From contig JBGCFG010000005.1 of assembly GCA_045106815.1 (NCBI GenBank), positions 30,507 to 94,506 on the forward strand: a stretch of 64,000 bases of DNA. Reading direction: 5' to 3'. The notes under the pieces are model-generated. The model searched no databases, was not told the origin of the DNA, and was given only the letters and a program-made list of their open reading frames with translations. This stretch comes from Burkholderiaceae bacterium (lineage in GTDB: Bacteria; Pseudomonadota; Gammaproteobacteria; Burkholderiales; Burkholderiaceae_E). Shown here in pieces: positions 17,546 through 39,628 of this stretch. A program made the translations under genes and the position numbers. Numbering within the stretch: position 1 is the stretch's first letter; every line of letters starts with the position of its first letter.

Positions 17546-17630
17546 TTGATCCTCTCTTTATTGTTGGCTTTTTCCATTTGCTTCTTTGGGCGTAGCCCGG
17601 CTACCCGCATCCACCTTGTTGTTGAATTCA

Positions 17631-18548: not shown

Positions 18549-18552
18549 CGCT

Positions 18553-22481: not shown

Positions 22482-22535
22482 TCAATCGACCTGTTTCCGA
22501 AAAGCAGGCAATACAACCCGTAAGGAGAAGACAAT

Positions 22536-23816
22536 ATGATCCGCAACTTGAGAAAGGCATTTGCCGGTGCCTTGACGGCCGCATCGCTTGGCATCTTTGC
22601 CAACTCGGCCACCGCAGCAACCGAACTCACGATGTACTACCCCGTTGCGGTAGGTGGGCCATTGACGAGCATCGTAGATGGCCTGGTTGATGGCTTCATG
22701 AAAGAAAACCCTGACATTAAAGTTAACGCGATCTATGCGGGCAACTACAACGATGCCCGAATCAAAGCACTGGCAGCGCTCAAGGCGGGTGAGCCGGCGC
22801 AATTATCTGTGTTGTTTTCCATCGACCTGTATGAGTTGATTGAGCAGGATGCGATTGTCCCATTTGACGATCTGGTCAAGACCGATGAAGAAAAGGCCTG
22901 GCTCAAGTCCTTCTACCCCACCCTAATGGAAAACGGACGGACAGCCGACAAGACCTGGGGTGTCCCGTTCCAGCGCTCAACCATCGTGATGTATTACAAC
23001 AAAGACATGTTCAAAGCCGCCGGCCTTGATCCTGAGAAAGCGCCCGCGACATGGGACGACCTCATCGCGGCGGGTAAAAAACTCACGAAAGATGACGGCT
23101 CGCAATGGGGCTTGATGATTCCATCAACTGGCTACCCCTACTGGATGTTTGGTGCGCTCGCTATGCAAAGCGGTCAAACACTGATGGCCTCATCCGGAGA
23201 TAAAACCAATTTTGATGCACCCGGCACGATCAAGGCATTGGAATTCTGGCGCTCGCTTGGCAGCGAACATAAAGTGATGCCTGAAGGTGTCATTGAATGG
23301 GGCACATTGCGCAAGAACTTCCTGGAAGGTAAGACAGCGATGATGTGGCACTCAACCGGTAACCTAACGGCGGTTAAGAAGAATGCGAAGTTTGATTTTG
23401 GTGTCGCCATGCTGCCAGCGGGCGAGCGACGCGGTACCCCAACGGGTGGCGGTAACTTCTACATCTTCAAAGATACCTCTGCTGAAGAGAAGGCAGCTTC
23501 GCTCAAATTGATCCGCTACATGACCGACCCTGCACGCTCGGCCGAATGGTCCGTTAAAACCGGCTACATGGGTATCAGTGCCGATGCCTACAAAACAGAG
23601 CAACTACAAAAGTACGTGGTCGACTTTCCGCCGGCAGCCGTGGCGCGCGACCAATTAGAGTTTGCCACCGCCGAGCTAGCGACGTTTCAGGCTGGTCGAA
23701 TTCGCAAAGCACTAGACGATGCGATTCAGGCAACCCTGACCGGTAGCAAACCTGCCAAAGATGCGCTCACCTCTGCTCAAGCCGAGGCAGATCGTCTACT
23801 CAAAGCGTATCGCTAA
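22536..23816 (+). CDS. ABC transporter extracellular solute-binding protein (family 1, UgpB-like)
   Basis: It has the signal peptide MIRNLRKAFAGALTAASLGIFANSATAA. It is a 426-aa family-1 SBP-type sequence in an operon with MalFG-type permeases. Confidence 0.8.
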   Translation: MIRNLRKAFAGALTAASLGIFANSATAATELTMYYPVAVGGPLTSIVDGLVDGFMKENPDIKVNAIYAGNYNDARIKALAALKAGEPAQLSVLFSIDLYELIEQDAIVPFDDLVKTDEEKAWLKSFYPTLMENGRTADKTWGVPFQRSTIVMYYNKDMFKAAGLDPEKAPATWDDLIAAGKKLTKDDGSQWGLMIPSTGYPYWMFGALAMQSGQTLMASSGDKTNFDAPGTIKALEFWRSLGSEHKVMPEGVIEWGTLRKNFLEGKTAMMWHSTGNLTAVKKNAKFDFGVAMLPAGERRGTPTGGGNFYIFKDTSAEEKAASLKLIRYMTDPARSAEWSVKTGYMGISADAYKTEQLQKYVVDFPPAAVARDQLEFATAELATFQAGRIRKALDDAIQATLTGSKPAKDALTSAQAEADRLLKAYR

Positions 23817-23832
23817 GCACTGAGCTCGCGAC

Positions 23833-24708
23833 ATGCATCACCCCATGAGGCATGTTTACGGATGGCTGCTGCTAACCCCAGCAGCCATCCTGCTCATCGC
23901 GTTCACGCATTACCCGACTGTTCTCACGCTAGTTAATAGCTTCTACAGCAAGGGCTCGGTCATACGACCATCAAAATTCATTGGGCCGGCGAACTATGAG
24001 TCAATGATCGCCGACCCGGTGTTTTGGAAGGTCCTTGTTAACAACCTGTGGTTTGCAGTTGGTACGATTCCCACCTCGATTGCGCTGGCCATCGTCATGG
24101 CCTTACTTGTCAACCGAGCCCTCCCCGGCCGCGCGCTCATTCGGATGGCTTACTTCACGCCAACCGTGTTACCCATGATTGCCGTTGCCAACATCTGGCT
24201 GTTCTTTTACAGCCCTGACATTGGTTTGATTGACCAGATTCTGACTGGTCTTGGCTTTTCAGGGCACAACTGGCTGGGCGATCCAGACACCGTGCTGGGC
24301 GCAATTATCGTCATGACTGTCTGGAAAGAAGCCGGCTTTTTCATGATCTTTTATTTGGCAGGCCTGCAAACGATTTCTCCTGAGTTGGCCGAGGCCGCCC
24401 GACTCGAGGGCGCCTCACGCTGGTACTACTTCAGGCGGGTCTTGTTCCCATTGTTGCTGCCGACAACTCTGTTCGTGTTTATCAACGCAACGCTTAACTC
24501 ATTCAAACTGGTTGATCACCTGTTCGTGCTCACAAAAGGCGGGCCCGACAACGCGAGTAATTTGCTGCTTTACTACATCTATGAGAATGCCTTTTCTTAC
24601 TTCGACACCAACTACGCGGCGGCCTTAACAGTGGTGATGCTTGCCGCCCTGGCCATTGCTGCGCTGATACAGTTTTTTGTACTGGATAAACGGATTCACT
24701 ACCGATGA
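23833..24708 (+). CDS. Sugar-type ABC transporter permease (UgpA/MalF-like)
   Basis: It has six TM segments and the EAA loop PELAEAARLEGASRWYYFRRVLFPLL. Confidence 0.85.
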   Translation: MHHPMRHVYGWLLLTPAAILLIAFTHYPTVLTLVNSFYSKGSVIRPSKFIGPANYESMIADPVFWKVLVNNLWFAVGTIPTSIALAIVMALLVNRALPGRALIRMAYFTPTVLPMIAVANIWLFFYSPDIGLIDQILTGLGFSGHNWLGDPDTVLGAIIVMTVWKEAGFFMIFYLAGLQTISPELAEAARLEGASRWYYFRRVLFPLLLPTTLFVFINATLNSFKLVDHLFVLTKGGPDNASNLLLYYIYENAFSYFDTNYAAALTVVMLAALAIAALIQFFVLDKRIHYR

Positions 24709-25553
24709 GCCGGCATTCAGACAGTCACTCCACAATGCCTGGCGCATCCCATTGGACAACGGCGATTGAAACTCTGGCTGCTTGGCTAATCGCCTTGCTC
24801 TGGGTCTCACCATTGCTATACGCGTTCTGGGCCGCCTTTCACGCGCCTGAGTTTGCGATTCATTTTGATCTCTTTGCGCCACTTACACTTGAGAACTTTC
24901 GTAGCGCGCTGGCGCAGGCACCCTTCTGGCAATACGGTCTCAATACCTTTACGTTGATCGCCATCCTGCTGCCTGCTCAGTTAGTGTTAGCCACACTGGC
25001 TGCCTACGCGTTTGCGCGCTATGAGTTTTGGGGGTCAAACGTCGCGTTCGTGTTGGTTTTGGCACAACTGATGATCACACCGGAAATTCTCATCGTTGAG
25101 AACTACACGTCACTGGCCAAACTCGGCCTGGTCGATACGATTACCGGTATCGCGCTGCCATACATGGCCAGTGCATTTGGCATTTTCTTGTTGCGCCAGA
25201 CATTCAAATCAACCCCCAAAGAGCTGGAGGAAGCGGCGCGGCTTGAGGGGTGTTCGTCGCTGGGCGTGCTCTGGCGGGTTTATGTTCCTTTGGCAAGACC
25301 CACTTATCTGGCGTTTGCACTCGTGTCTGTTAGCCACCATTGGAATAACTTTCTCTGGCCGCTGGTCGTGACCAATTCAGTAGACACCCGACCACTCACC
25401 GTCGGCCTCGGCGTTTTCGGTGCGCCGGAATCGGGCGTCGATTGGTCAGTTGTGTCAGCCGCTACTTTGTTGTCTGTTGCACCCTTGTTGGTTGCGTTCA
25501 TCTTGTTTCAACGACAGTTCGTTCAGTCTTTCATGCAAGCAGGTATCAAATGA
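24705..25553 (+). CDS. Sugar-type ABC transporter permease (UgpE/MalG-like)
   Basis: It has the EAA loop ELEEAARLEGCSSLGVLWRVYVPLARP. Its start overlaps the previous stop. Confidence 0.85.
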   Translation: MSRHSDSHSTMPGASHWTTAIETLAAWLIALLWVSPLLYAFWAAFHAPEFAIHFDLFAPLTLENFRSALAQAPFWQYGLNTFTLIAILLPAQLVLATLAAYAFARYEFWGSNVAFVLVLAQLMITPEILIVENYTSLAKLGLVDTITGIALPYMASAFGIFLLRQTFKSTPKELEEAARLEGCSSLGVLWRVYVPLARPTYLAFALVSVSHHWNNFLWPLVVTNSVDTRPLTVGLGVFGAPESGVDWSVVSAATLLSVAPLLVAFILFQRQFVQSFMQAGIK

Positions 25554-26404
25554 CTTCGGTGCTAACTTGGAACATTCAAAACGGCTTGGGGGTTAACGGC
25601 GACCGCTCGCTGGAGAGAATCGCCCAGGTCATTCACAGTCACGGCGACCCCGATGTTTTGTGCCTTCAGGAAGTTTCTCGGCACCTCGTGCTCGATCACG
25701 GGGTTGCAGCACCTGATCAGGTTTCTGAACTTGCTCAATTGTTTCCTGAGTATGAACCGGTGTTTGGGGCCGCTTATGACATCGTCCAGCGAGACAACGG
25801 ACAGCGCGCACAATACGGCAATCTGATTCTCAGTCGCTTACCCGTTCTGTCGCGCTTTTCGCATCCCTTGCCGCAACCGCCTTGCGGCGGAGAAATGCAG
25901 ATGCCCCGGCAAGCGATGGAAGTAAGCGTCATGGCTCATGACGGGCCGCTGCGAGTGATGACGACACATCTTGCGTTTCATTCGGCAACTGAGCGCCTCG
26001 CCCAGATTAAGGCCTTCAAGAGCATCCATGAAGCGATTGTGCAAGTCGCGGAGCATCCACCCAAGCAACTATCAAGTGGCCCGTATCAGGCGTTCGATCG
26101 AGCCAGTCGCGCTGTCTTGTGTGGTGACTTCAACTGTCTGCCTGAGTCCGACGAGTGGACAGAGTTGTTTGAGACTGCGCCAACTTCCAAAGCGCGCTTA
26201 CAAGATGCCTGGCGAGTTCTCTCAGGAGAGACTCCGCATAAACCCACTTGTGGCATTTTTGATCAAACTCAATGGCCTCAAGGTGGGCACTGCCGTGACT
26301 ACTTTGCCGTTGGTGGCGAACTGGCTAGCCAGATAATAGGCATGGTGACTGACACAAACACTGACGCTTCTGATCACCAACCCATTCGCCTTACGCTGAG
26401 CTAG
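25550..26404 (+). CDS. Endonuclease/exonuclease/phosphatase (EEP) family protein
   Basis: MTSVLTWNIQNGLG...DVLCLQEV...GDFNCLPESDEW...NTDASDHQPIRL shows the EEP catalytic motifs (N..E, D.N, SDH). An ATGA overlap joins it to the permease gene. Confidence 0.7.
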   Translation: MTSVLTWNIQNGLGVNGDRSLERIAQVIHSHGDPDVLCLQEVSRHLVLDHGVAAPDQVSELAQLFPEYEPVFGAAYDIVQRDNGQRAQYGNLILSRLPVLSRFSHPLPQPPCGGEMQMPRQAMEVSVMAHDGPLRVMTTHLAFHSATERLAQIKAFKSIHEAIVQVAEHPPKQLSSGPYQAFDRASRAVLCGDFNCLPESDEWTELFETAPTSKARLQDAWRVLSGETPHKPTCGIFDQTQWPQGGHCRDYFAVGGELASQIIGMVTDTNTDASDHQPIRLTLS

Positions 26405-27794
26405 CTGATCTGATGAACTGCTGAAGCTTGTTCATTGCAGGCACTGAATTGTCCCGCAGTTTGCTCAAGATTCTCTGTTTGACTTCGTCGTCTTTGGGCA
26501 CCCCAGACATCAACACCGTAAAGCCATCAAGCCGGTTCGTCTTGAGCCACGGCTTTATATCGTCAGCTTGTGACCACAAGTATTGGTTCATCATGCCGGC
26601 GGCCGTAAAGCGAACAAAATCAATGTCCTTGTCAGGCGGAGGCAACACACCACAAAGCTGATTTTTTTCGGCGTCTGTGCGCTCACTCGCTTCAATGAAG
26701 GCGATGAACGACGCGCTGAATACAGGCTGATAGGCACGGACCAACTGTGGCGTTATGCGTCTGCTCTCAAAGATTGGTTTAGGCGGGCGTAGCGTAATGG
26801 CACTTGCGGTGCAATCAATATGCACCTGATCAACACTTGTTGGGATACTCCCATCGGCAAGCTCGATCTTTGTTGCGGTCAGATGTTTGACGCGTCCTAA
26901 CCTGACAACCTGCTTTATCTTTCGAATTTCCGACAGTTCGGCCTGACTGATTGTGGCTGCATGAAACATGCTGGGCCGCACGCTTGGGTCTAGTCGCAGG
27001 AAGTAACCTCCTGCTTCAAGCCGATCAAACATGTCGTCAATTGATTCAGCCTCAGCGATCGCCTGCATTTGCGTGGCGATATTGCCAATACTGTATTCGA
27101 AGAACTCCTTGTCTGGCTGCGCATTGCGCCGATCTAAGAGCCAGGCGTCGCGAGGCATGATCCATCGAATGCTGTCTGGAGTGACACCGTTTTGCAGCAG
27201 CCACAAACAAGTATCAATACCTGTCTTGCCCCCGCCGATGACGACATAGCCACCGGCAGGTTTCGTCAGCCGGGGCAGTTCGTTTGGCGGCACGAAATGA
27301 ACATCATCATCAATCTGAAAGTTCGGCGTATGAGTACTGGGAATAGAGGGCATGTGATAGGCAGCATCAACGACTCTCTTTTTCACCTCAACAGTGTATT
27401 GCTCACCCGATAGAAGCGCTGTAAATCGCCCCTCTTCGTTGACATTGCACATGGGAAAGTACTGCACACGACCACTCGGCAAAAAGCGATGCTGCATCAA
27501 TTGCTCGTAGTAGCCGCACACCTGCGCACCAGTTGCCAGATCGAACAAGCCCTTGTTAAGCCCAACCTCATCTTTTTGCCCTGTGCCCAATTCAAGCGAC
27601 TGCACGCCATAAAACTGCGATGGCTGATGCAGCGTGACGAATGGGTAAGCCATGTTCCAGTGACCCCCTGGTTTGTGCTGGCGGTCCACCATAATCACCG
27701 TGGCATCTGACTCGGCAAGCAAAGTGTCAGTAAACGCCATGCCAACCGCACCCGCGCCAATGACGAGATAATCAGCTTTGAGGGTATTGGCCAT
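26391..27794 (-). CDS. FAD/NAD(P)-binding flavoprotein, class-B monooxygenase-like
   Basis: It has two dinucleotide-binding motifs: DYLVIGAGAVGMAF near the N-terminus and YVVIGGGKTGIDT in the middle. The ATG is at 27794 (MANTLKADY). Confidence 0.6.
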   Translation of the reverse strand: MANTLKADYLVIGAGAVGMAFTDTLLAESDATVIMVDRQHKPGGHWNMAYPFVTLHQPSQFYGVQSLELGTGQKDEVGLNKGLFDLATGAQVCGYYEQLMQHRFLPSGRVQYFPMCNVNEEGRFTALLSGEQYTVEVKKRVVDAAYHMPSIPSTHTPNFQIDDDVHFVPPNELPRLTKPAGGYVVIGGGKTGIDTCLWLLQNGVTPDSIRWIMPRDAWLLDRRNAQPDKEFFEYSIGNIATQMQAIAEAESIDDMFDRLEAGGYFLRLDPSVRPSMFHAATISQAELSEIRKIKQVVRLGRVKHLTATKIELADGSIPTSVDQVHIDCTASAITLRPPKPIFESRRITPQLVRAYQPVFSASFIAFIEASERTDAEKNQLCGVLPPPDKDIDFVRFTAAGMMNQYLWSQADDIKPWLKTNRLDGFTVLMSGVPKDDEVKQRILSKLRDNSVPAMNKLQQFIRSASSA

Positions 27795-27863
27795 AAGGTG
27801 CACGCTCCTGAAGTCGATGAGGTCTGACAGGCAAGCCCTGCCAAGCGCTGCATCTTAAGGGAT

Positions 27864-29255
27864 TCACGACATCCATACCGGCTCATGTGTGCCGAGTTGG
27901 CTTGCGCCTGTCTCCCAATGCATTGGCACCTTGCTCACGTCTATTGCCGGCTTGAGTCGCTTTGCCGGCCCCCAGGTGGTTTGTTCAGTTGCGGGTGAGT
28001 AGTCATCCGATGAAAACGCCTTAATGGTTTCACTGCCATCATCCGCGTTTTCTTGTAAGTGGCCAAATAGCAATGCCGCCGTTCTGGCTAGCGACAGCCG
28101 GGCAGTCAAACCGTGGCCCGATTCGCGCCTTCTCGTGAGTCCTTCAATCGCGCTGGCAGCCATAAGAAAACCAGTGGCATAGTCAAGCGCCTGGACGGGC
28201 AAAGGCACAGGCGAATCAACACCGCGCCAGCGCATACCCAGTTCGGCAATGCCGCTACTCATTTGCACCAGGCTGTCAAAGCCGCGCCTGTGTGCCCAGG
28301 GTCCTTGCCACCCGTATGCATTGAGACAAACATCCACCAGGCCCGGACGAATAGCGCGACGCGTTGCGCCATCCAGGCCGAGCCGCTCCAGGGCGTCGGC
28401 TCGATAACCATGGACCAGCACGTCAGCTTGGCTCAGTAAGCTTTGAAATTGCGCCTGTCCTGCTTCGGTGCGCAGATTCAGCCGCGCGCAGCGCTTGCCC
28501 AGCGTGACGTCGGGTACGACCGCTGGCTCATCCCAGTCCAGCGGGTCGAGCCGCAAGACTTGTGCGCCATAGCCCGCCAGTAGGCGCGTGGCGACCGGCC
28601 CGGCCAGGACTCGAGTCAGGTCAAGGACCTTCACGCCATGCAGCGGTCTACTGACAGGCGCCGGATCAGGCTTGCTCTGGTGCGTACTAAGCTCATCTGT
28701 CTGAAGGTCAATGAGTGGCTCATGATTGACGACCGAACCCTGTGGATGCAATTGCCATTGGGATGCCGCCAGCATGCGCGCCGCGCAGCCACCCGCTTGG
28801 ACAATGCTTGTTTCCAATTCTTCTCCTTGCCATTGGGCAACTGCGCTGGCCATCGCCGCTTTGTCATCGTGCGCGCCGAGTACGCGCTGAGCGGCCGCAC
28901 GATGCAAAGGCGCATTCGTGTGCAGGCGTATCCAGCCATCACGGCATCGATAGTCCCCGGCGATTGAATCCCACGGACCGGGTATTTCCCAGCCGAGTGG
29001 TCTGATCGTTGGCTGAAACCAGCCCGAAGCAAGCCGCCGATCGATCGTGACCGAAGGGGCCGATTGGTGAGTCGCTTCGATCAATCGCCTTAACACCAGC
29101 GCGACGGTAGCCTGACTGGCCGCTGCGAGTTCAGTGACAGGAAAGCGTGATTCGAGCGCCCCGTCTCCGGTAAAGCGCAAAACGTCAGCAGGGGGCGGTT
29201 GCAAGCCCAGCGCCGCTAGACATTCCGTTGTTATTTCGATCGCTAACTGTGTCAT
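27864..29255 (-). CDS. Family III CoA-transferase (CaiB/BaiF-type) with atypical domain order
   Basis: The hallmark N-terminal motif VKVLDLTRVLAGPVATRLLAGYGAQVLRLD starts only at about residue 208. The catalytic-Asp region is VQALDYATGFLMAASAIEGL. Residues 1-200 (DYRCRDGWIRLHTN...) resemble the small domain that is normally internal. Confidence 0.75.
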   Translation of the reverse strand: MTQLAIEITTECLAALGLQPPPADVLRFTGDGALESRFPVTELAAASQATVALVLRRLIEATHQSAPSVTIDRRLASGWFQPTIRPLGWEIPGPWDSIAGDYRCRDGWIRLHTNAPLHRAAAQRVLGAHDDKAAMASAVAQWQGEELETSIVQAGGCAARMLAASQWQLHPQGSVVNHEPLIDLQTDELSTHQSKPDPAPVSRPLHGVKVLDLTRVLAGPVATRLLAGYGAQVLRLDPLDWDEPAVVPDVTLGKRCARLNLRTEAGQAQFQSLLSQADVLVHGYRADALERLGLDGATRRAIRPGLVDVCLNAYGWQGPWAHRRGFDSLVQMSSGIAELGMRWRGVDSPVPLPVQALDYATGFLMAASAIEGLTRRRESGHGLTARLSLARTAALLFGHLQENADDGSETIKAFSSDDYSPATEQTTWGPAKRLKPAIDVSKVPMHWETGASQLGTHEPVWMS

Positions 29256-29304
29256 CGCGAGCTCCTAAAAGTTTTTTGCAAGATCAAGTTTTAAGGTGGA
29301 GCAT

Positions 29305-29335
29305 ATTGATGTCAATATTGATTAAATTGATCAAT
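29305..29335. promoter_or_regulatory. Cluster of ATTGA/TCAAT inverted repeats (putative operator) in the divergent intergenic region
   Basis: ATTGA-tg-TCAAT lies at 29305..29316, a third ATTGA at 29317, and the perfect 10-bp palindrome ATTGATCAAT at 29326..29335. The cluster sits in the 111-bp gap between the genes starting at 29255 (minus) and 29367 (plus). Confidence 0.5.
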
Positions 29336-29366
29336 GTAAAGTCAACACAATGGACGGAGTACCGGG

Positions 29367-30548
29367 ATGAATACCTGGATAACGGCGAAACAAGCATTGG
29401 CCAAACTCGGTATCAAGCCGCAATCGCTGTATGCCAATGTCAGCCGGGGCCGCATTCGCGCAAAACCTGACGCAAGGGACTCACGACGATCGCTCTACCA
29501 CCGCCAAGATGTCGAGCAGGTAGCAAAACGCAGAGCTGGGCGACAGTCGCAAAATACCGTGGCCGCGGAAACCATTCGCTGGGGTGCGCCCCTGCTGTCT
29601 TCAAGCATTACCGCCGTGATTGACGGCCAGTTGTTCTATCGCGGCCAAAATGTCGTGGCCCTTGCCGAACACGCAGCATTCGAACAAGTTTGCGAGTGCT
29701 TATGGATGACCAAGAATGTTCGCTTTGAACTAAGCAAGCGCGCGCAAACATCAAAGGGCTTTGAGTTGGATAGCCCTGTCGTTGATAGCTCACTAGTCGT
29801 CCTGGCTCGGCTGGCCAGCCAAACAAACCCGTGCCTCGGTCGGTCAAATCGCGTGCTGATTGAAGAAGCGACCATGATCATCCACCAGGTCATCAATGCC
29901 ATTATTGGCGAGCACGACACTAGCGACACGCCGGTTCATCTACGCCTGGCCAACGCCTGGTCGGCGCCGCAAGCAGCAAACGCTATTCGATGTGCGCTTG
30001 TTCTGCTGGCCGATCACGAACTCAATGCGTCCACGTTTGCCACTCGCGTGGCCATCTCAACTGGTGCGCCCCTGGCTGCGGGTTTGCTGGCGGGGCTAAG
30101 CACGCTCCTGGGACCCCGCCACGGGGGCGCAGCACACGCCATGCAGCAACTCGTTCAGCTGTCGTTGGCAACAAGTGCCCAAAGCGCTCTGCAGGCGACG
30201 CTTAATTCGGGCCTGCCGCTATCGGCGTTTGGTCATCCCTTGTACCCCGAGGGCGATCCGCGAGCCCGAGCTTTGATCCAGACATTCGATTTGCCGCTGG
30301 TCTTTGCTGAGCTGGAAGCGCTGGCAACCGACCTCACGGGTGAACGCGCCAACATCGATTTTGCGCTAACTGCCGTCGCCTACGCTCACGGTCTGCCGCC
30401 AGACGCTCCGTTTAAGATCTTCGCCACGGCGAGGCTTGCCGGTTGGGTCGCCCATGCGCTTGAACAGAATCACACCGGCAAGCTCATTCGGCCACGCGCT
30501 CAATATGTTGGACTTGCTCCGCCGGCCGAGCCGATCGCAAGTCTATGA
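29367..30548 (+). CDS. Citrate synthase-family protein with N-terminal excisionase/MerR-type helix-turn-helix
   Basis: The N-terminus, MNTWITAKQALAKLGIKPQSLYANVSRGRIRAK..., is an HTH. The C-terminal 330 aa are citrate-synthase-like. They carry GPRHGGA, AFGHPLYPEGDPRA and ANIDFAL, which correspond to the GPxHGGA, GFGHRVY..DPRA and NVDF catalytic His/His/Asp motifs of GltA. Confidence 0.7.
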   Translation: MNTWITAKQALAKLGIKPQSLYANVSRGRIRAKPDARDSRRSLYHRQDVEQVAKRRAGRQSQNTVAAETIRWGAPLLSSSITAVIDGQLFYRGQNVVALAEHAAFEQVCECLWMTKNVRFELSKRAQTSKGFELDSPVVDSSLVVLARLASQTNPCLGRSNRVLIEEATMIIHQVINAIIGEHDTSDTPVHLRLANAWSAPQAANAIRCALVLLADHELNASTFATRVAISTGAPLAAGLLAGLSTLLGPRHGGAAHAMQQLVQLSLATSAQSALQATLNSGLPLSAFGHPLYPEGDPRARALIQTFDLPLVFAELEALATDLTGERANIDFALTAVAYAHGLPPDAPFKIFATARLAGWVAHALEQNHTGKLIRPRAQYVGLAPPAEPIASL

Positions 30549-30637: not shown

Positions 30638-30738
30638 CACACGGCACAATATGCCGCTTTAAAGCCTGAGGCGATCTACGCTCACGAGAAGCAAAGCGTC
30701 GATCTCACTCAACCCCAACCTTGCCTGGAGAAACCCGG

Positions 30739-32199
30739 ATGACAGATCGATTCATGGATCGCTTTGCAAAGACCCCTGCCGTATTGCGCGCGCTCGTACT
30801 TGGCGCCCTCGTCACACTGGCCGCCTGTAGCCAGGAAGATCAGGACAAGGCAGCGGAGCAGGTCATGACGACCGCCGAAAAAACGAAGCAAGCCGCCGAG
30901 CAAGCCGTGGATTCAGCTAAAGAAACCGTAAACACAGCGACTGAAGCTGTGAAGGAATCTGCGGCCGGCATGGGCGATAAAGCAAAAGACATGGCCGATA
31001 AGGCGGCCGACACGGTGACAGAAACCGCCGAGAGTGCGGCTGAGCGCGCCAAAGAGTCAACCGCCGCGGTAACCGAGAAAGCCAAAGAAATGGCTGATAC
31101 CGCAACGCAGAAAGCTGGCGCTGCCGCCACCGCGGTTGCCGCTGCGGCCGCCGGTGCGACGGGCACTGGCACGAGCGCAGCCGGTAGTGCTGATGCAATT
31201 AAAGCTGCCTGGGTCTACATCGGCCCGGTTGGCGACGGTGGCTGGACATTTGCGCATGACAATGGCCGAAAAGCCGCCCAGGAAGCGATGGGCGACAAAA
31301 TGGTCTCCAGCTTTGTTGAAAGCGTGCCTGAATCTGCAGATGCAGAGCGGGTACTTCGAGACCTCGCTGTGCAGGGGAACCAGGTTATCTTTGGGACCAC
31401 GTTCGGCTACATGGAGTCAATGCGCAAACTAGCGAAAGAGTTTCCGGATGTCCGTTGGGAGCATGCCACCGGCTATAAGACAGCCGAGAATATGCGTACC
31501 TTTGACTCTCGTACCTATCAAGGCGCCTACATGGCCGGCGTGATTGCGGGCGCTATGACCAAGTCCAACACGCTGGGGGTGGTTGGCTCAATCCCCATTC
31601 CAGAAGTCATTCGCAACATCAACTCGTTTACGATGGGTGCGCAGTCTATGAACCCGGACATTTCAACCAAGGTTGTCTGGGTAAACAAGTGGTTTGATCC
31701 ACCGCGTGAAGCCGAAGCGGCTCAGTCACTGCTTGATCAAGGCGCCGACGTTTTGTTCCAGAACACCGATTCATCTGCCGTTTTGCAAACCGCGCAGAAG
31801 GCAGGAAAGTTTGCGTTTGGCTGGGATAGCGATATGACAGCCTACGGCCCGGAGGCCCATCTGGCGTCGGCGATCATTAACTGGGGTCCGTACTACACCC
31901 AGGCCATGACACAGGTTGCTGAAGGAACCTGGGAAACCGGCAGCTCATGGTGGGGGGTCGCCGAGGGGGCAATTGACATCGTGTCGATCTCAGACAAGGT
32001 CCCCGCTGAGGTCAAAACAAAAGTCGATGGCATTCGCGCTGGCCTCAAAGGAGGCATCTTCAAGATTTGGAAAGGCCCATTAATGGATTCCACCGGCAAA
32101 GAAGTTCTCGCTGATGGCGTGGTGGCCGATGATAAGTTCTTAAGTGGTGTGAACTTCTATGTCAAAGGCGTAGAGGGGCAGGTTCCAACCGGCGGCTAG
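30739..32199 (+). CDS. BMP-family (Med/PnrA-like) ABC substrate-binding lipoprotein with a long N-terminal Ala/Lys/Glu repeat linker
   Basis: It has the lipobox LVTLAAC. About 130 aa of amphipathic repeats follow (AEKTKQAAEQAVDSAKETVNTATEAVKESAAG..DKAKDMADKAADTV..). The BMP core then reads AAWVYIGPVGDGGWTFAHDNGRK...FGTTFGYM... Confidence 0.75.
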   Translation: MTDRFMDRFAKTPAVLRALVLGALVTLAACSQEDQDKAAEQVMTTAEKTKQAAEQAVDSAKETVNTATEAVKESAAGMGDKAKDMADKAADTVTETAESAAERAKESTAAVTEKAKEMADTATQKAGAAATAVAAAAAGATGTGTSAAGSADAIKAAWVYIGPVGDGGWTFAHDNGRKAAQEAMGDKMVSSFVESVPESADAERVLRDLAVQGNQVIFGTTFGYMESMRKLAKEFPDVRWEHATGYKTAENMRTFDSRTYQGAYMAGVIAGAMTKSNTLGVVGSIPIPEVIRNINSFTMGAQSMNPDISTKVVWVNKWFDPPREAEAAQSLLDQGADVLFQNTDSSAVLQTAQKAGKFAFGWDSDMTAYGPEAHLASAIINWGPYYTQAMTQVAEGTWETGSSWWGVAEGAIDIVSISDKVPAEVKTKVDGIRAGLKGGIFKIWKGPLMDSTGKEVLADGVVADDKFLSGVNFYVKGVEGQVPTGG

Positions 32200-32240
32200 T
32201 GGGTCGTACGCGTTTCAGCGGGGCATAGCGCCCATACAGC

Positions 32241-32272
32241 ATGGCCAGTCTGCGAATTCACAGACTGGCCAT
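32241..32272. terminator. Perfect 12-bp hairpin between convergent genes
   Basis: ATGGCCAGTCTG-cgaattca-CAGACTGGCCAT lies immediately after both convergent stops (32199 and 32275). It has no strong U-tract. Confidence 0.5.
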
Positions 32273-32274
32273 GT

Positions 32275-33330
32275 TCATTTGGTCTGCTGCTTAATGAGAG
32301 TGCGCGCACCATCAAGCAAGGTTTGGCCGTCATAGCCCAGTTCTTTAAGTTCTTCGAGCCAGACCTGATCCACTTTCAGTGAAGCTTTGCGAAAAGCCTG
32401 CGCAGCCTCCTCATCAATGACGGTGAGCGCGCCTGGTTCAGTACCGCCGAGCAGCCGATTGCGTTGGGCACTGGCATGTTCCTGCTCAACAGTCCCGAAC
32501 TCGGCCGACAGTTCCGACCCGGTGTTGGCATCAACAATTGCCTTTAGGTCATCGGGCAATGAGTCGTACCGAGTGGGATTCATCGCCAGCAAAAAGGTCC
32601 GGGTGAACAAGGCGCCGGTCTTCGCACCAAATACGGTATGGCGTTGAATGAACCGCTCAGCCCTAAGCGGACCGGCTGAATCCCAGGTATCGATAAGTCC
32701 GTCAATCGCCCCTTCACTTAGGGCCTGGGCCGTGTCCGTCTCAGTTGAATCCACCACTTGTGAACCGAGCAGTTCTGCATAAACTCCCATGAGTCTTGGT
32801 GTTGATTGCAGTCTTAGTCCCTTGAAGTCATCCACTCCCTGAATCGATTTACGTCGGGTGTGAACAACCCCCTCGCCCTGAACGCTCAGTCCGAGCAACT
32901 GAACGTCTTTGAATTCATCAGCAGCGTAGGTTTCAACATATTCCCACAACGCCCGCGATACCGCAGACGGTGTTGTCATCATAAACGGCAGTTCAAACAC
33001 CTCTATGCGATTGAACTGATTTTTTACTAAGTCCGTTCTGGCCCAAACAACGTCAACAGCACCGTTGCTGACTTGTTCATAAAGCTCGTCAGGCTCGCCT
33101 CCAAAACCCATCGCGGCGAAACGCTCGAACCGCAGGCGACCATTTGACTGGGTCTCGATTCGATCCATCCAAGGCTTGAGCATCATTTGCCATTGCATGG
33201 ATGATTCGGCAACATGAGTATGAAACTTGAGAACAACGGGCGGCTCCGGCGCAGGCGGTTGCTGCGCCAGGGCGCAAGCGGTCCACGCCGCGGCAAACAC
33301 TGCCGCCACTAGTTTTTCTTTTAAGCCCAT
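32275..33330 (-). CDS. TRAP transporter substrate-binding protein (DctP family), orphan
   Basis: It has a signal peptide (AAVFAAAWTACALA). The pattern is DctP-like: LKFHTHVAESSMQWQMMLKPWMDRIETQSNGRLRFE...ELPFMMT. No DctQ or DctM genes are present in the window. Confidence 0.7.
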   Translation of the reverse strand: MGLKEKLVAAVFAAAWTACALAQQPPAPEPPVVLKFHTHVAESSMQWQMMLKPWMDRIETQSNGRLRFERFAAMGFGGEPDELYEQVSNGAVDVVWARTDLVKNQFNRIEVFELPFMMTTPSAVSRALWEYVETYAADEFKDVQLLGLSVQGEGVVHTRRKSIQGVDDFKGLRLQSTPRLMGVYAELLGSQVVDSTETDTAQALSEGAIDGLIDTWDSAGPLRAERFIQRHTVFGAKTGALFTRTFLLAMNPTRYDSLPDDLKAIVDANTGSELSAEFGTVEQEHASAQRNRLLGGTEPGALTVIDEEAAQAFRKASLKVDQVWLEELKELGYDGQTLLDGARTLIKQQTK

Positions 33331-33474: not shown

Positions 33475-33798
33475 TCAGGATTGCGTTTCCGGCATGCGTA
33501 CTGTCAATCCAGCCAGCGCCTCAGTCATTTCGATCTGACAAGACAAGCGGCTGTTGGCTTTTCGTTCGGAGGATGTTTGATCGAGCATCGTCACCTCATC
33601 TTCCGTGGCAGGCGGCAGTTTGTCGACCCACTCAGGCTCAACATAGACATGACAAGAGGCACATGACAAACACCCGCCGCACATCCCTTCAATACCATCC
33701 AAACCATCAAAAACAGCGGCCATCATGACCGAGTTACCAGGTTCGACTTCCAGAGTCGTGGAAGTGCCATCGTGAGCGATATAAATTACGTCTGCCAT
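33475..33798 (-). CDS. [2Fe-2S] ferredoxin, adrenodoxin/putidaredoxin type
   Basis: It has the MCGGCLSCASCHV motif (Cx5CxxC) plus the distal SRLSCQI cysteine. It is 107 aa long. Confidence 0.85.
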   Translation of the reverse strand: MADVIYIAHDGTSTTLEVEPGNSVMMAAVFDGLDGIEGMCGGCLSCASCHVYVEPEWVDKLPPATEDEVTMLDQTSSERKANSRLSCQIEMTEALAGLTVRMPETQS

Positions 33799-33822
33799 TG
33801 CTTTCGTTAGACCATTGCCAAA

Positions 33823-35274
33823 TCAGAAAAGATCAAAGTACTCCCGCTGCTCCCACTCAGTAACTTCTAGATGGAACCGCGCAAGCTCAAACTGCTTCAA
33901 TTGCGAATAGTAGTCGATAAATTCCTGACCAAACGCTTTTGAATAAAAGGGATCATCTGCCAGGGCGGCCAATGCCTGGTCCAGTGTTCTGGGTAGCAGC
34001 GGGTATTCGGACGCATAAGGCTCATCAGCACTCGCGCCCGGGTCCGCCTGCTGCGCGATTCCCTCAAGGCCTGCCGCCAGCTGTGAAGCAAGATAAAGGT
34101 ATGGGTTCGCCGCCGGCTCCCCTACTCTGTTTTCAATACGAGTGGCTGGATCTTCGCCGCCCCCAACCACGCGCAGCATTGCGCCGCGATTGTCTCGGCC
34201 CCAGTTGATCCGTTCAGGCGCCAGCGCATTCGGTCTATAGCGGCGATAACCATTGATTGTTGGCGTCGCAAAGACCGTCCCCGCCGCCGCATGGCGAACA
34301 AGCCCCCCCAGGTAATGGTGCCCGCTGGCAGCCAGGCCAGAAGCCAATGGCTTCGGATCACAAAACACATTACGACCTGAATCGAGCGAAATCAGTGACT
34401 GATGCAGGTGCCAACCGCTTGACATCGCATGCGGCAGAGCCGGCCGGCACATAAAGCTGATGTGATAACCGTGACGCTGCATGATTTGTTTGGCAGCATG
34501 CCTGAACTGCAGCATCGTGTCTGCGCCAGCTAACGCATCCTGCGGCCCGAAAACAAACTCAAGCTGGCTTGGACCAAGCTCAACCTCAACAGACTCGAGC
34601 GGCAAGCCCATGGCTATCAGGGGCTCTGTTAGCAGATCGACAACGGGCTCAAGCTTGTCGTAGCGTTGCTCTGACAACAGGCGATACCCCATTGACAGCG
34701 GGTTCACAGCGGGCGCGGCACCCGGCCAGCCAAGATCAGTCACATCAATCGCTTGCCCGGCCAGTCTGAACAAATGGCATTCAACCTCAAGCCCAACCCG
34801 CATTTGATAAGACTGCCGATGTGCCGACTCAAGACACCGTTGCAACACGCCGCGTGTATCAAACGGCACCAACTGACCCCTTCGCTCGCCCCGGTAGAAG
34901 TAGGGCTGACACTGTACCCAGCCTGAGCCCGGTGACCAGGGCAATTCAACGAAACTCAAGGGATCGGCAACGAGTAAAACGTCGGCTGCCCCTTCAAAGT
35001 CTTCGCTGCCAAAGCCGGCGCCCCGGGTAAACACAGCCTGTGTAGTTCGATCCGAACTATCTTTAAGCAGATTCGTCCCGACAAAACCCACTCCATTCTC
35101 TAGCGCAGCTTCTGCTCGCTGGGCGAACAATGCTTTACCGCGAACCAGTCCGTGCTGATCTGCCCAGCCAAAGCGAAGCCTCTTTAGTTCGCCATTGCGA
35201 AGGCGAGCTGACAGTCGCTTAGCCGCATCCTGCGCCTCGTCGGTCCATAACTGGTGACTCTGGACAAAACTCAT
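33823..35274 (-). CDS. Glutamine synthetase-family ligase (gamma-glutamyl-amine synthetase-like)
   Basis: This 483-aa protein has a GS beta-grasp plus catalytic domain pattern (FGWADQHG..., EVELGPSQLEF, SFMCRP...SSGWHLHQSL, NRGAMLRV, RIENRVGEPAANPY). It lies in an operon with an oxygenase, not with nitrogen-regulation genes. Confidence 0.8.
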   Translation of the reverse strand: MSFVQSHQLWTDEAQDAAKRLSARLRNGELKRLRFGWADQHGLVRGKALFAQRAEAALENGVGFVGTNLLKDSSDRTTQAVFTRGAGFGSEDFEGAADVLLVADPLSFVELPWSPGSGWVQCQPYFYRGERRGQLVPFDTRGVLQRCLESAHRQSYQMRVGLEVECHLFRLAGQAIDVTDLGWPGAAPAVNPLSMGYRLLSEQRYDKLEPVVDLLTEPLIAMGLPLESVEVELGPSQLEFVFGPQDALAGADTMLQFRHAAKQIMQRHGYHISFMCRPALPHAMSSGWHLHQSLISLDSGRNVFCDPKPLASGLAASGHHYLGGLVRHAAAGTVFATPTINGYRRYRPNALAPERINWGRDNRGAMLRVVGGGEDPATRIENRVGEPAANPYLYLASQLAAGLEGIAQQADPGASADEPYASEYPLLPRTLDQALAALADDPFYSKAFGQEFIDYYSQLKQFELARFHLEVTEWEQREYFDLF

Positions 35275-35285
35275 TGACTAACGGC

Positions 35286-36647
35286 TCATTGACTTAGGGT
35301 CTTGGTCTTGCTGGTCGTATCGAGGGCCCAGGGTGCGTTCATCCGGCGACGCTCATCAACGGCTTGCCACTGAGTCCTTAACTCAGCGGCGCCGCCGGTG
35401 CACACACCATCCATGGTCGCCGGACCGGTGACATTAGGCAGACTCTCTGTGCCCATAAAGCCCGGTGGCAAGGCCTTATCTTCCACGGCTTGCATGGCCT
35501 TAAGCAATTGACGACGGTTGGCCATGATGGCTTTGTCGGTTGTGCCTAGATGCTCTCTCGTGCGATCAGCGATGGGTCCTGGCGACTCTACAGCCCACTG
35601 GTCGTGCACATTGATATCTTCGCCCATACCGGTGTATGTCCGACTGTCTTGCTCTGCCGCAGAAAAGCCGTACCGGTTGTGTGCGCCGGTGATTGGTGCG
35701 TAATCAGGCAGGCGATGCATGGCAAGTCTTTGCGCGAGCATCGTGGCTTTGTCTACAGGCTCTGCGAAACTCGTGAACAGGGTAAACCAGTAGGTATGAG
35801 TGTCATCGACGGGCACATGCCACTGCGTGATCGTCATCGTCTCTGAGAGCGGCAAGACGATCGCATTAGGAAACAGGCCATTGGTCACGCGCACATGGGT
35901 TTTGCCCTCACCCAAATTTCGAAGCGTCGTAAGGCGCAAGCCAAAGTCGGTTGGCTCTACCTGAATCTCGGGTCGGTCAAACTGCCTGAGCACTTCAATC
36001 ATGGTGAGTTCTGAGTTGGCAGACTCACTGCGAAATTGTTTGCCATAGGCCTCTTCTTGCTCACCGTCCTCAAAGAAGCGATGCAAAAATGAGGCATGCG
36101 CCGGATCTATGCCTACTTCATGCGCCTGCAGCCAGTTGCAATGCCACAGGCCCTTGAACGCAAAAACATGCGAGTCTGGCGCTACAAAGCAATCAAGCGC
36201 AGGCAAAGGCGCCGGCGTTTGGTCACCCAACCAGGCGAAGATGGCGCCGTTTCGCTCGGTGACCGGATACGCTGTCTGTTGGATCCGCTCGCACAGCTTG
36301 CTTCCGAAAGGCTCTGCCGGTGTTTCAAGACACTTACCGGTGCTGTCAAACAACCAACCATGAAACGGACACCGCAACCCACCCGCTTCAAGCCGCCCGT
36401 AAGACAGGTCAGCACCCCGATGTGGGCACGCCCGATCCAGCAAAGCCGGCTCACCCTGCTCATCGCGGAACAAAACAAGGTTTTGGCCAAGCAAGCGCAC
36501 GGGGATGACAGGACGTTTGACGCCGTTTTGTAGTGCGTCCAACTCGCTACTGAGCGCAACGGGATGCCAATAGTGCCGAAGTAGATGACCTCCGGGCGTA
36601 CCTAGGCCAACTTCAGTCAGTCGCTGGTTTTGTGAAGCCGAAATCAT
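35286..36647 (-). CDS. Rieske [2Fe-2S] non-heme iron oxygenase, alpha-subunit only (phthalate-family-like)
   Basis: The Rieske motif is CPHRGADLSYG...CPFHGWLF. A catalytic domain with a His-rich region follows (QAHEVGIDPAHASFLH). There is no beta subunit gene. Confidence 0.8.
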   Translation of the reverse strand: MISASQNQRLTEVGLGTPGGHLLRHYWHPVALSSELDALQNGVKRPVIPVRLLGQNLVLFRDEQGEPALLDRACPHRGADLSYGRLEAGGLRCPFHGWLFDSTGKCLETPAEPFGSKLCERIQQTAYPVTERNGAIFAWLGDQTPAPLPALDCFVAPDSHVFAFKGLWHCNWLQAHEVGIDPAHASFLHRFFEDGEQEEAYGKQFRSESANSELTMIEVLRQFDRPEIQVEPTDFGLRLTTLRNLGEGKTHVRVTNGLFPNAIVLPLSETMTITQWHVPVDDTHTYWFTLFTSFAEPVDKATMLAQRLAMHRLPDYAPITGAHNRYGFSAAEQDSRTYTGMGEDINVHDQWAVESPGPIADRTREHLGTTDKAIMANRRQLLKAMQAVEDKALPPGFMGTESLPNVTGPATMDGVCTGGAAELRTQWQAVDERRRMNAPWALDTTSKTKTLSQ

Positions 36648-36760
36648 GTAAGCGTTGCAGCGCCCATTGCTTGGGCCGTTCTTAACTTAGGGGCTCACAG
36701 GTTAGCACCGGCAGCCGGCCCTTCCCAGATCACGTCTGCAGCGATACCCGCAGCCTATGG

Positions 36761-37432: not shown

Positions 37433-39628
37433 ATGGCTTTAGCTCTCGAAATCACCCAACCCGATCAAAGTATTGTCAGCAAACCGCTGGCGTCAGGTGC
37501 AGCTAAGTACGTTGCCCAGGCTGGCGAGAAATTTCGGATCGTGGATGAGAACGGGCAGCCAATAGATGGCATCACGGCCATTCGAGAGGGCCAAAACCTA
37601 GTTCTTCATGGACTGCCGGAAACCGACAAACTAGAGCTAACCGATTTTTTTGAGCATTGTGAAAACGATGATCAAACCTGTGTGCTGACGATGCCAGATG
37701 GACAAGTCATCAACGCGTCTCATGATGCGCCCCTGCTCATCGCGCAAAGCAGCTCTGCAACCAAAACCGATGCCACAGCAACAACACCGTCAGTGACGGT
37801 CGAAGAAGCAGCGGGTAACCCGGCGATGGAGACAAGCACCATTGCCCTGGGCGCGATAGGTGGCTTGCTGGTAGCGGGCGGCTTGAGCAGCGGCGGCAGC
37901 GATGACCCTGCGCCGATAGACAACACACCCCCAGCGACCACTGCGCCTGCCGCTTCGCTTGAGGGCAGTGATCTCACCCTCACCGCTGCTGAAGCCGCGA
38001 ATGGCGTCACGGTTAACGGTACCGCCGAACCCAACAGCGTGATCGTAGTGATGATTGGTGATGTCTCGGTTGAAACGGTCGCTGATGGAAACGGTCAATA
38101 CACGGCGACGGTTGATGGTGCCTCCCTGCCTGCGGACGGGACCTATCCTGTCACGGTGACGTCCAGCGGACCAGGCGGCAACAGCGCGCCGGAGACCACA
38201 TCCATTGGCGAAGTCACGATAGATACCGCGTCAGGCGGCAACCTTGCAGTCACCGATGCAGCGGCAACCACCTTGAGTGGCTTTGCTGGCGATGATGTGC
38301 TCGTTGGTGGTAACTCGGTCAGCGTCGCTAACGGTGACTTCAATACATGGGATCTCACAGGTTACAACTCGGACGGCAACCTCAACAGCACAGCCTCTGG
38401 GCTTGTCTATGACCCAACGACAGCTGTGACGCCAGACAGCTCCATTCAAATCGATACTGTGCCGGGTAACCCTGGACAACCTAATATTGGCTGGTCGATA
38501 TTGGCTGACCAAGACCCCGGCGGCAACGCACCCCTCACGGGGCTGGGCGATGTCGGGCGCAATGGATTTGAAGACGGTACCTCGGGTAACTCGCGCAACT
38601 TCGCAAGAATTGAACTCATCACCGATGATGTGAATCCAGGAAGCTACCTGTGGGAAACCGTGACCTCGAATGAAAGCGGTGGCGGTGGCCTGACCCAAAC
38701 CCTGGACACCATCGCCGGTCAGGACTACACGCTGAGCATGGATGTTGTGTCACCCACCAGCACGGGTCGACCGAGCGACAGCCATCAAACAGCGGGCACA
38801 TCTATCGAAGTGCGCTGGGGCAATGAAACGATCGCCTTTTTTGATGCGACCGCTAATAGTGATGTCGGCGCCTGGGTGACCACAGGCGGGCTGGTTGCGC
38901 CTACTGTTGAAGGCGGCACCTGGACGTTTTCCAATTTGACTGCTGATGCAACTCAGACCGAGTTAAGCCTCATTGCCTATGAACGCTATGGCGACAGGAG
39001 CAACGCGTTTAACGATGGTGTTGGACTTCGAATCGGTAATGTTTCGGTGACCGGGGCCGCCGGGGCGGCTGACCAGATCATTAGCGGTGGGGCCGGTAGC
39101 GATTTGATCTACGGACAAGACGGTAACGACGTACTCTATGGCGGAACGGCTAGTACCCCCGACACTGCAACCGATGTCTTCGTGTTCAGCATGCAAATGG
39201 ACAATGGCACCAACACGATCGCCGACTTCGATGTCAACGCTGACCGCATCACACTGGTTGATGTCCGGGATGTTGATTCGACCGGCACCCTGTTGCCCGG
39301 CGATACCCGCAGCTTTACCGATGACGTGGGTGGCACGGAGGGCGCAGACGGTACTGCGACGGGCGAGTCCCTTACCAACACCAACAACATCAACGTGAAC
39401 GACTTACTCGCAAGCGGCGAGCAATCGATTTCTGTGGCTGAAAGTGGTGGCAACACCGTGTTGACCATGACAGGGGAAGGCGGCGCAGACCTGGGCAGTG
39501 TGACCCTCACGGGTGTGACAGGTCAGGTCGGTGCAGACGACTCAGCCTCATTGAATAATCTGATCAATGCCGGCTTACTCACATTCACGTCAGACCCATT
39601 CAGCAACCAGTTGCAGGCGACCGTTTAA
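37433..39628 (+). CDS. Secreted RTX/T1SS-type repeat protein with Ig-like and lectin-like beta-sandwich regions
   Basis: There is no Sec signal. The N-terminal region resembles an adhesin prefix (AKYVAQAGEKFRIVDENGQPIDGITAIREGQNLVL) and is followed by Ig-like T/V/G-rich segments. Two GGxGxD nonapeptides are present (GGAGSDLIYGQDGNDVLYGG). The C-terminal TIADFDVNADRITLVD segment resembles the type I secretion target domain. Confidence 0.65.
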   Translation: MALALEITQPDQSIVSKPLASGAAKYVAQAGEKFRIVDENGQPIDGITAIREGQNLVLHGLPETDKLELTDFFEHCENDDQTCVLTMPDGQVINASHDAPLLIAQSSSATKTDATATTPSVTVEEAAGNPAMETSTIALGAIGGLLVAGGLSSGGSDDPAPIDNTPPATTAPAASLEGSDLTLTAAEAANGVTVNGTAEPNSVIVVMIGDVSVETVADGNGQYTATVDGASLPADGTYPVTVTSSGPGGNSAPETTSIGEVTIDTASGGNLAVTDAAATTLSGFAGDDVLVGGNSVSVANGDFNTWDLTGYNSDGNLNSTASGLVYDPTTAVTPDSSIQIDTVPGNPGQPNIGWSILADQDPGGNAPLTGLGDVGRNGFEDGTSGNSRNFARIELITDDVNPGSYLWETVTSNESGGGGLTQTLDTIAGQDYTLSMDVVSPTSTGRPSDSHQTAGTSIEVRWGNETIAFFDATANSDVGAWVTTGGLVAPTVEGGTWTFSNLTADATQTELSLIAYERYGDRSNAFNDGVGLRIGNVSVTGAAGAADQIISGGAGSDLIYGQDGNDVLYGGTASTPDTATDVFVFSMQMDNGTNTIADFDVNADRITLVDVRDVDSTGTLLPGDTRSFTDDVGGTEGADGTATGESLTNTNNINVNDLLASGEQSISVAESGGNTVLTMTGEGGADLGSVTLTGVTGQVGADDSASLNNLINAGLLTFTSDPFSNQLQATV

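Follow-up and report, generated by a model that had tools for sequence, protein, structure and literature searches.

We identified an intact operon predicted to serve the glutamylation and dioxygenation of aromatic amines in a 64,000-nucleotide stretch of DNA from a Burkholderiaceae bacterium (GenBank assembly GCA_045106815.1, contig JBGCFG010000005.1, positions 30,507 to 94,506; hereafter the window, to which all coordinates refer). The operon is real, but it is an ordinary representative of an arylamine glutamylation-dioxygenation system that has already been described and is very widespread. It consists of four consecutive minus-strand open reading frames (ORFs) separated by gaps of exactly 11, 24 and 144 nt. 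The first encodes an alpha-only, phthalate-family Rieske oxygenase that resembles the terminal oxygenase SadA (35286-36647, minus strand, 453 amino acids (aa); Pfam Rieske and LigXa_C). This is followed by a glutamine synthetase (GS)-like protein, a predicted ATP-dependent gamma-glutamyl-arylamide ligase resembling SadB (33823-35274, minus strand, 483 aa; Pfam Gln-synt_C, 8e-76), and by a putidaredoxin/adrenodoxin-type [2Fe-2S] ferredoxin (33475-33798, minus strand, 107 aa; Pfam Fer2). The last gene encodes a DctP-family periplasmic solute-binding protein of the tripartite ATP-independent periplasmic (TRAP) type, with a signal peptide (32275-33330, minus strand, 351 aa; Pfam DctP and TRAP_S1). 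An earlier note on this DNA, made from the letters alone, had described three tightly spaced minus-strand genes with DctP downstream; the ORF list reproduces its gap lengths exactly, and Pfam matches and the motifs CPHRGADL and CPFHGW bear out the four protein identities that it gave.

This operon is probably a pared-down SadABD/Pab-type module for deaminating an anionic aromatic amine, with 4-aminobenzoate as the likeliest natural substrate and 4-aminobenzenesulfonate (sulfanilate) as a likely side substrate. The earlier note had proposed a glutamylation-dependent amine oxidation like that of aniline dioxygenase systems. This proposal fits the homology, as the closest characterised relatives of the ligase are of the NpaA1 and TdnQ type. 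The differences from known systems that the note had listed as novel are instead features of the published sad operon and are typical of hundreds of homologous loci. The architecture was published for sadABD in 2012-2017, so the claimed novelty does not hold. As a discovery the operon is of limited value, being a further chromosomal instance of an arylamine-deaminating system that was already known.

The sad operon of Hydrogenophaga intermedia PBC encodes an oxygenase (sadA), a GS-like protein (sadB) and a ferredoxin (PMC5632844). The system, a 4-aminobenzenesulfonate 3,4-dioxygenase, deaminates 4-aminobenzenesulfonate to 4-sulfocatechol as the initial reaction (PMC5632844). SadA is a Group I oxygenase; the genes for its Novosphingobium homologues likewise adjoin one for a glutamine synthetase (PMC3704786). 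The window operon is like sad in joining an alpha-only Group I (phthalate-family) oxygenase gene to GS-like and ferredoxin genes. It differs from sad in adding a TRAP DctP gene, in lacking the GntR regulator of the Hydrogenophaga loci and in having no 4-sulfocatechol pathway nearby. Gan et al. in 2012 (Microbiology 158:1933) reportedly found sadB to be essential for activity in E. coli, with the reductase gene lying outside the operon. Homologous oxygenase-ligase pairs are present in at least eight other Hydrogenophaga species, with 58-61% (Rieske) and 43-53% (GS-like) identity to the window proteins.

Catalytic residues and predicted substrate class

The best PDB match of the ligase is NpaA1 (8WWU, 3e-113), which gamma-glutamylates 1-naphthylamine and anilines and for which glutamylation was shown to precede dioxygenation (PMC11335346). 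Sequence identity of the ligase is 49-53% to homologues encoded beside phthalate-type Rieske genes on annotated plasmids, 42-44% to arylamine ligases of the TdnQ/DcaQ (aniline/chloroaniline) type and 38-40% to NpaA1. It is 31.6% to IpuC and ~29% to GlnT. The ligase scores below the curated NCBIfam cut-offs for GlnA (216 versus 429 bits), type III GS (234 versus 470 bits) and PuuA (180 versus 650 bits). The comparison with the isopropylamine (ipu) pathway, GmaS and PuuA drawn in the earlier note is remote, at ~29-32% identity and with scores under the family cut-offs.

Residues E230 and E232 of the ligase correspond to the catalytic E232 and E234 of NpaA1 and are conserved, and the ATP, glutamate and metal motif set common to the two proteins is complete. 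The amine tunnel of NpaA1 has a hydrophobic loop (V68'-M81') and a bottleneck made up of F75', F86' and W235. In the window ligase, K71 stands at the F75' position and R76 at the S80' position. The former is Lys in 217/217 and the latter Arg or Lys in 213/217 family members (here and below, counts of family members and loci are among the matches listed). Aniline-type TdnQ has Phe and Ala at these positions, and the hydrophobic tunnel of aniline-type ligases, with Phe in place of Lys71, is in keeping with uncharged substrates. K71 combined with Arg/Lys76 could provide a simple sequence signature that separates anionic-arylamine ligases from aniline-type ligases, and the two tunnel positions are a ready mutagenesis target.

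The best solved relatives of the oxygenase are isophthalate dioxygenase (IPDO; 9INA, 1e-57) and the phthalate dioxygenases (PDO; 7FHR and 7FJL). The window protein is 51-71% identical to members of its own family and ~35% identical to IPDO and PDO. It shares with PDO and with IPDO (Comamonas testosteroni KF1) a common fold family, the Rieske cluster ligands (C74/H76 in CPHRGADL and C93/H96 in CPFHGW), the bridging aspartate (D181), the mononuclear-iron ligands (H184, H189 and D349) and a carboxylate-anchoring arginine (R253, equivalent to IPDO R234 and PDO R244). All of these residues are invariant in 217/217 family members. A second carboxylate-binding residue has been lost, with F223 at the position of PDO R207 and Q275 at that of IPDO H257. 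As this position is not kept, the oxygenase is not a phthalate or isophthalate dioxygenase. It also differs from PDO and IPDO in its partners: the window oxygenase is obligatorily paired with a GS-like ligase and accompanied by a putidaredoxin-type ferredoxin, whereas PDO and IPDO work with a fused PDR-type reductase. No beta-subunit gene was found in the window or in annotated relatives. The ferredoxin matches putidaredoxin (1OQQ, 1e-29) over its full length and is the predicted electron donor to the oxygenase.

Together, K71 and R76 of the ligase and R253 of the oxygenase fit an arylamine that bears a carboxylate or a sulfonate. The earlier note had called the substrate unpredictable from the sequence. 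Its class, an aromatic amine with an anionic group, is predictable from these residues, although they suggest such a substrate rather than demonstrate it.

Conservation and gene neighbourhoods in relatives

We scanned one genome per species for homologous loci in three scans, seeded with the window oxygenase (scan 1), a Hydrogenophaga homologue (scan 2) and a homologue from Novosphingobium resinovorum SA1 (scan 3). Counts refer to the best 600 candidates per scan, and loci with enough downstream sequence were treated as testable. Longest-ORF calling picked antisense ORFs in GC-rich loci; ORFs were therefore selected with weighting by the GC content of third codon positions, a procedure that is still imperfect.

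A GS-like gene lies within 500 nt downstream of the oxygenase gene, on the same strand, in 214/220 testable loci, an arrangement far from chance. The hosts include Variovorax, Hydrogenophaga, Limnohabitans, Polaromonas, Ramlibacter, Cupriavidus, Caballeronia, Paraburkholderia, Bradyrhizobium, Reyranella and Acetobacteraceae. Such near-universal linkage across Alpha- and Betaproteobacteria favours a shared natural substrate, for example 4-aminobenzoate, over a xenobiotic. A check of neighbourhood conservation had been proposed in the earlier note. It finds the GS-like gene kept beside that of the oxygenase, which itself lies outside the carnitine and betaine clades.

The genes around the pair are far more variable. 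A ferredoxin (Fdx) gene is near the pair in 33/56, 40/57 and 2/64 loci of scans 1, 2 and 3, respectively, the first two scans being betaproteobacterial. A ferredoxin reductase (FdR) gene is near it in 13/56, 0/57 and 5/64 loci, and a gamma-glutamyl hydrolase or glutamine amidotransferase (GATase) gene adjoins it in only ~5 loci. Reductase, hydrolase and transporter are interchangeable accessories and not defining parts of the system. As the earlier note had stated, the window encodes no beta subunit, reductase or gamma-glutamyl hydrolase/amidotransferase: tblastn with seeds from relatives found no homologue of a beta subunit, ferredoxin reductase, GATase/PuuD-like hydrolase, DctQ or DctM in the 64-kb window, and Pfam scans of gene-like window ORFs of at least 150 aa (limited to those neither contained in nor overlapping a longer ORF, whichever its strand) agree. 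The note had also taken the missing reductase and hydrolase to be distinctive. These parts are presumably encoded elsewhere, and they adjoin the pair in Polaromonas JS666, Burkholderia YI23 and Cupriavidus.

DctP, whose best PDB match is 5IM2 (6e-76), is near the pair in 6/56, 16/57 and 0/64 loci of the three scans. DctP orthologues are thus operon-linked in 22 relatives, often in the order DctQ-DctM-DctP, and the window gene is not a chance neighbour. The earlier note had described DctP as an orphan. This holds in that the window encodes only DctP of the three components (DctP, DctQ and DctM) of a complete TRAP transporter, but it does not hold for the link between DctP and the operon.

Among the loci listed, the closest relative of the window locus is a Burkholderiaceae metagenome-assembled genome (L001), with 71% identity in the Rieske and 70% in the GS-like protein. 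L001 is syntenic with the window through DUF3567, oxygenase, ligase, ferredoxin, DctP and Bmp genes. In Polaromonas JS666, a GntR gene is divergent from an oxygenase-ligase-Fdx-FdR run, which is followed by a five-gene ATP-binding cassette (ABC) transporter and a type 1 glutamine amidotransferase. Burkholderia YI23 has an oxygenase-ligase-Fdx-FdR-peptidase (C26-type) cluster, and homologous Rieske-GS-Fdx-FdR-peptidase clusters are found on Paraburkholderia, Caballeronia and Burkholderia replicons. Cupriavidus pinatubonensis has a nitroreductase-oxygenase-ligase-Fdx-FdR cluster, with a gamma-glutamyl-GABA (gamma-aminobutyrate)-hydrolase (PuuD)-family gene and an aromatic acid/H+ symporter nearby. 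In Methylobacterium nodulans, the Fdx-FdR genes diverge from the pair, and a nitroreductase gene is close by. The sulfanilate degrader N. resinovorum SA1 bears the pair on its plasmid pSA3, along with genes for a maleylacetate reductase, Fdx-FdR and a glutaminase and a copy of folP.

Comamonadaceae operons often continue with a small ABM-domain gene and adjoin genes for MarR, a flavin adenine dinucleotide (FAD)-dependent aromatic hydroxylase, gentisate 1,2-dioxygenase and a maleylpyruvate-type isomerase. Such gentisate-type neighbours recur in loci L088-L166 (for example L126:12430-13524) and are also seen at L003:13965-15215. In other Comamonadaceae loci the operon runs on into DctQ-DctM-DctP. 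In Bradyrhizobium and relatives (L167-L245), an IclR gene precedes the pair, and BoxR-like, benzoate-CoA ligase and BoxC (2,3-epoxybenzoyl-CoA dihydrolase) genes are nearby. The gentisate 1,2-dioxygenase, maleylacetoacetate/maleylpyruvate isomerase, FAD hydroxylase, benzoate-CoA ligase and BoxC assignments are all above NCBIfam cut-offs. As read from their gene content, the contexts in JS666, YI23, Cupriavidus, Methylobacterium, pSA3, Comamonadaceae and Bradyrhizobium all point to aromatic acids. The flanks are not obviously aromatic in Xylophilus (TonB/ExbBD, PhyH and D-Glu cyclase) and Rhodovarius (a NitT/TauT ABC transporter).

Proposed mechanism and alternative readings

We propose that DctP would bind the substrate in the periplasm, with membrane partners that are encoded elsewhere or shared. 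The ligase would use ATP and L-glutamate to convert the imported arylamine to an N5-aryl-L-glutamine (a gamma-glutamyl-anilide). A reductase encoded elsewhere would take electrons from NAD(P)H and hand them to the operon ferredoxin, which would supply the oxygenase. The oxygenase, predicted to be a homotrimer (alpha3), would dihydroxylate the nitrogen-bearing carbon and its neighbour (ipso/ortho). The unstable product would then spontaneously lose glutamine (or glutamate and ammonia) to leave a catechol, which would be protocatechuate in the case of 4-aminobenzoate.

We infer the substrate, the leaving group and the order of these reactions. A ligase-first order is suggested by analogy with the NpaA1 system, and the hydrolase/GATase genes of JS666, Cupriavidus and YI23 and the glutaminase gene of pSA3 support it. 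In the aniline, chloroaniline and 1-naphthylamine clusters (AtdA1-A5, TdnQTA1A2B, DcaQTA1A2B and NpaA1-A5), the arylamine is first glutamylated, and a Rieske dioxygenase then takes off its nitrogen (PMC11335346). The window shares with these clusters a homologous GS-like gamma-glutamylanilide synthetase. The aniline clusters also encode a GATase-like hydrolase, a two-subunit (alpha/beta) oxygenase and an FNR-type reductase (as in Delftia pC1-1), none of which is in the window.

The assignment of 4-aminobenzoate draws in part on the pab operon of Paraburkholderia terrae KU-15, described by Liu, Okano and Iwaki. Its GS-like protein PabA is said to make gamma-glutamyl-4-carboxyanilide from 4-aminobenzoate. 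The multicomponent dioxygenase PabB1-B3 reportedly converts this glutamylated intermediate to protocatechuate, and the hydrolase PabC reportedly reverses the ligation. PabB1 may belong to the same alpha-only family, and the homologous clusters on Paraburkholderia, Caballeronia and Burkholderia replicons may be pab operons. Neither the reductase nor the hydrolase gene of the pab operon has a counterpart in the window.

Several points weigh against deamination of 4-aminobenzoate by a Sad/Pab-type module. The activity of the clade is read from sequence and context, and the link to 4-aminobenzoate rests partly on the reported KU-15 work. Orthology to the PBC proteins SadA and SadB is deduced from the shared architecture, from published conservation throughout the genus and from 58-61% identity to loci of other Hydrogenophaga species. 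SadB was originally hypothesised, from deletion and transposon data, to act after hydroxylation (PMC3704786). The window supplies no reductase, hydrolase or DctQM gene, and neither a regulator nor ring-cleavage genes for the module lie within its 64 kb. The Comamonadaceae relatives adjoin genes of the gentisate and not the protocatechuate pathway, a link that a route from 4-aminobenzoate to protocatechuate leaves unexplained.

The binding protein is a further such point. The conserved arginine of TRAP binding proteins binds the carboxylate of the ligand. Within its motif FKGLRLQSTPR, the window DctP has Gln where 21 operon-linked orthologues and 5IM2 have this Arg (K[VML]RGPTR). The L001 DctP has Ser at the same position, and both the window and L001 proteins have an Arg two residues earlier. 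Loss of the conserved Arg may reflect a shifted ligand-binding mode or a decaying gene.

We consider it unlikely, but worth weighing first, that the same mechanism serves another natural arylamine (3-aminobenzoate, anthranilate or an aminosalicylate), with the product entering a gentisate-type lower pathway. The operon adjoins FAD aromatic hydroxylase, gentisate 1,2-dioxygenase, maleylpyruvate-type isomerase and fumarylacetoacetate (FAA)-hydrolase-family genes in Polaromonas, Ramlibacter and Hydrogenophaga loci, and in two close relatives of the window (L003 and L006) the FAD hydroxylase gene directly follows DctP. However, ipso/ortho dioxygenation yields ortho-diols and not gentisate, and the one family member studied functionally uses a para-substituted amine (PMC5632844). 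Because the gentisate genes come with a MarR regulator of their own, they may form a separate operon that descent has kept beside the pair; none of them is in the window.

A related suggestion, which we hold to be rather improbable, is that the sub-lineage formed by the window and the metagenome-assembled genome PBSAbet1 has retargeted Sad/Pab-type machinery to a different natural amino-aromatic acid. The stripped-down operon, the orphan DctP with its shifted binding-site Arg and the ligase and oxygenase, which are only 51-71% identical to other members, would be consistent with such retargeting.

A module dedicated to the breakdown of sulfanilate, like those of Hydrogenophaga PBC and N. resinovorum SA1, is distinctly unlikely. 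The one homologous system that has been characterised genetically acts on 4-aminobenzenesulfonate, and a homologous pair is carried by pSA3 of a sulfanilate degrader. Yet sulfanilate is a xenobiotic, and the pair is present in hundreds of environmental genomes. The sad operon was itself conserved in all Hydrogenophaga genomes then known, and its authors inferred that a natural analogue of sulfanilate was the original substrate (PMC5632844). The window module lies in a core chromosomal region ~26 kb from dnaA with no insertion sequence (IS) elements near it, and no sulfocatechol-pathway genes are visible nearby. The natural substrate of the window operon is probably not xenobiotic sulfanilate.

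It is very unlikely that the order of reactions is reversed, with the Rieske enzyme hydroxylating the free arylamine and the GS-like protein then removing or transferring the amino group. This was the original SadB hypothesis, based on the deletion and transposon data noted above. Against it, the gamma-glutamylated amine is the substrate of the oxygenase in the NpaA1 system, and the window ligase retains the complete set of ATP, glutamate and metal motifs that it shares with NpaA1. The gamma-glutamyl hydrolase/GATase and glutaminase genes of related clusters are sensible only if a gamma-glutamyl-arylamide and glutamine are intermediates or products.

That the operon is a new kind of module for some other, possibly aliphatic, amine, as its alpha-only oxygenase, missing reductase and hydrolase and the Xylophilus and Rhodovarius flanks might suggest, is most improbable: the window parts list is as the earlier note described it, but an identical architecture was already published for sadABD, the ligase is 42-44% identical to aniline-type ligases and only ~30% to IpuC and GlnT, the nearest solved relatives of the oxygenase are ring-dihydroxylating phthalate and isophthalate dioxygenases, and the missing parts adjoin the pair in JS666, Cupriavidus and YI23. 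An aliphatic-amine nitrogen-scavenging route, in which glutamylation and alpha-hydroxylation would be followed by release of glutamine and an aldehyde, was likewise dropped on the ladder of ligase identities and the aromatic contexts.

Transcription unit and surrounding genes

The 5' side of the oxygenase gene is a 113-nt intergenic region that follows the DUF3567 gene (36648-36760, minus strand). A promoter scan found no sigma-70-like site in this region, and inspection found no convincing sigma-54/NtrC-type promoter (GG-N10-GC), sought as a sign of nitrogen scavenging. Whereas most relatives carry a divergent GntR or IclR regulator, none is present at the window module. The 144-nt spacer between the ferredoxin and DctP genes has a predicted fold no more stable than those of shuffled sequences (z = 0.18).

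A terminator-like scan and inspection of the sequence identified a perfect 15-bp inverted repeat (32238-32275), with arms ATGGCCAGTCTG and CAGACTGGCCAT, between the convergent DctP and Bmp genes. The repeat has no T-run. It is likely a bidirectional terminator that closes the transcription unit.

The module sits in a core chromosomal setting near the origin, with def-fmt-rsmB, ntrYX, topA and dnaA-dnaN-gyrB also in the window. The gyrB, dnaN and dnaA genes are at the window end (58784-63993), which places the module ~26 kb from the probable replication origin region.

Of the window genes, only a ChaC-like gamma-glutamylcyclotransferase gene (53140-53814, plus strand) encodes an enzyme that acts on gamma-glutamyl compounds. 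It is followed by a gene for a pyridoxal phosphate-dependent enzyme and is 17 kb from the module, with no linkage to it.

We also identified a YcgM-like FAA-hydrolase-family gene (12510-13217, plus strand) that scores just under the NCBIfam cut-off and overlaps the start of an Ldh_2-family gene (13186-14316, plus strand). Its product is 62-63% identical to the FAA-hydrolase-family protein encoded between the ferredoxin and DctP genes inside the Hydrogenophaga operon and 79% identical to that of L001. The gene is ~3 kb from the module in L001 and ~19 kb from it in the window. Between this gene pair and the module is a cluster (17586-27803) that encodes a PhyH dioxygenase, a DeoR regulator, a sugar-type ABC transporter, two phosphoesterases and an FAD-type protein. 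This cluster is absent from the corresponding L001 stretch.

A divergent gene pair (27864-30548) encodes a family III CoA-transferase, extended at its N terminus by ~200 aa, and a citrate-synthase/citryl-CoA-lyase-like protein, which scores far under all citrate synthase cut-offs. The Bmp/PnrA-family binding protein encoded next to it (30721-32199, plus strand) has an N-terminal extension of ~150 aa that is rich in Ala, Lys, Glu and Thr and gives a sub-threshold Apolipoprotein match. On the other side of the module, a plus-strand gene (37433-39628) encodes a 731-aa Gly/Thr/Asp-rich protein with a single RTX nonapeptide match and a syntenic homologue in L001 (6659-8875).

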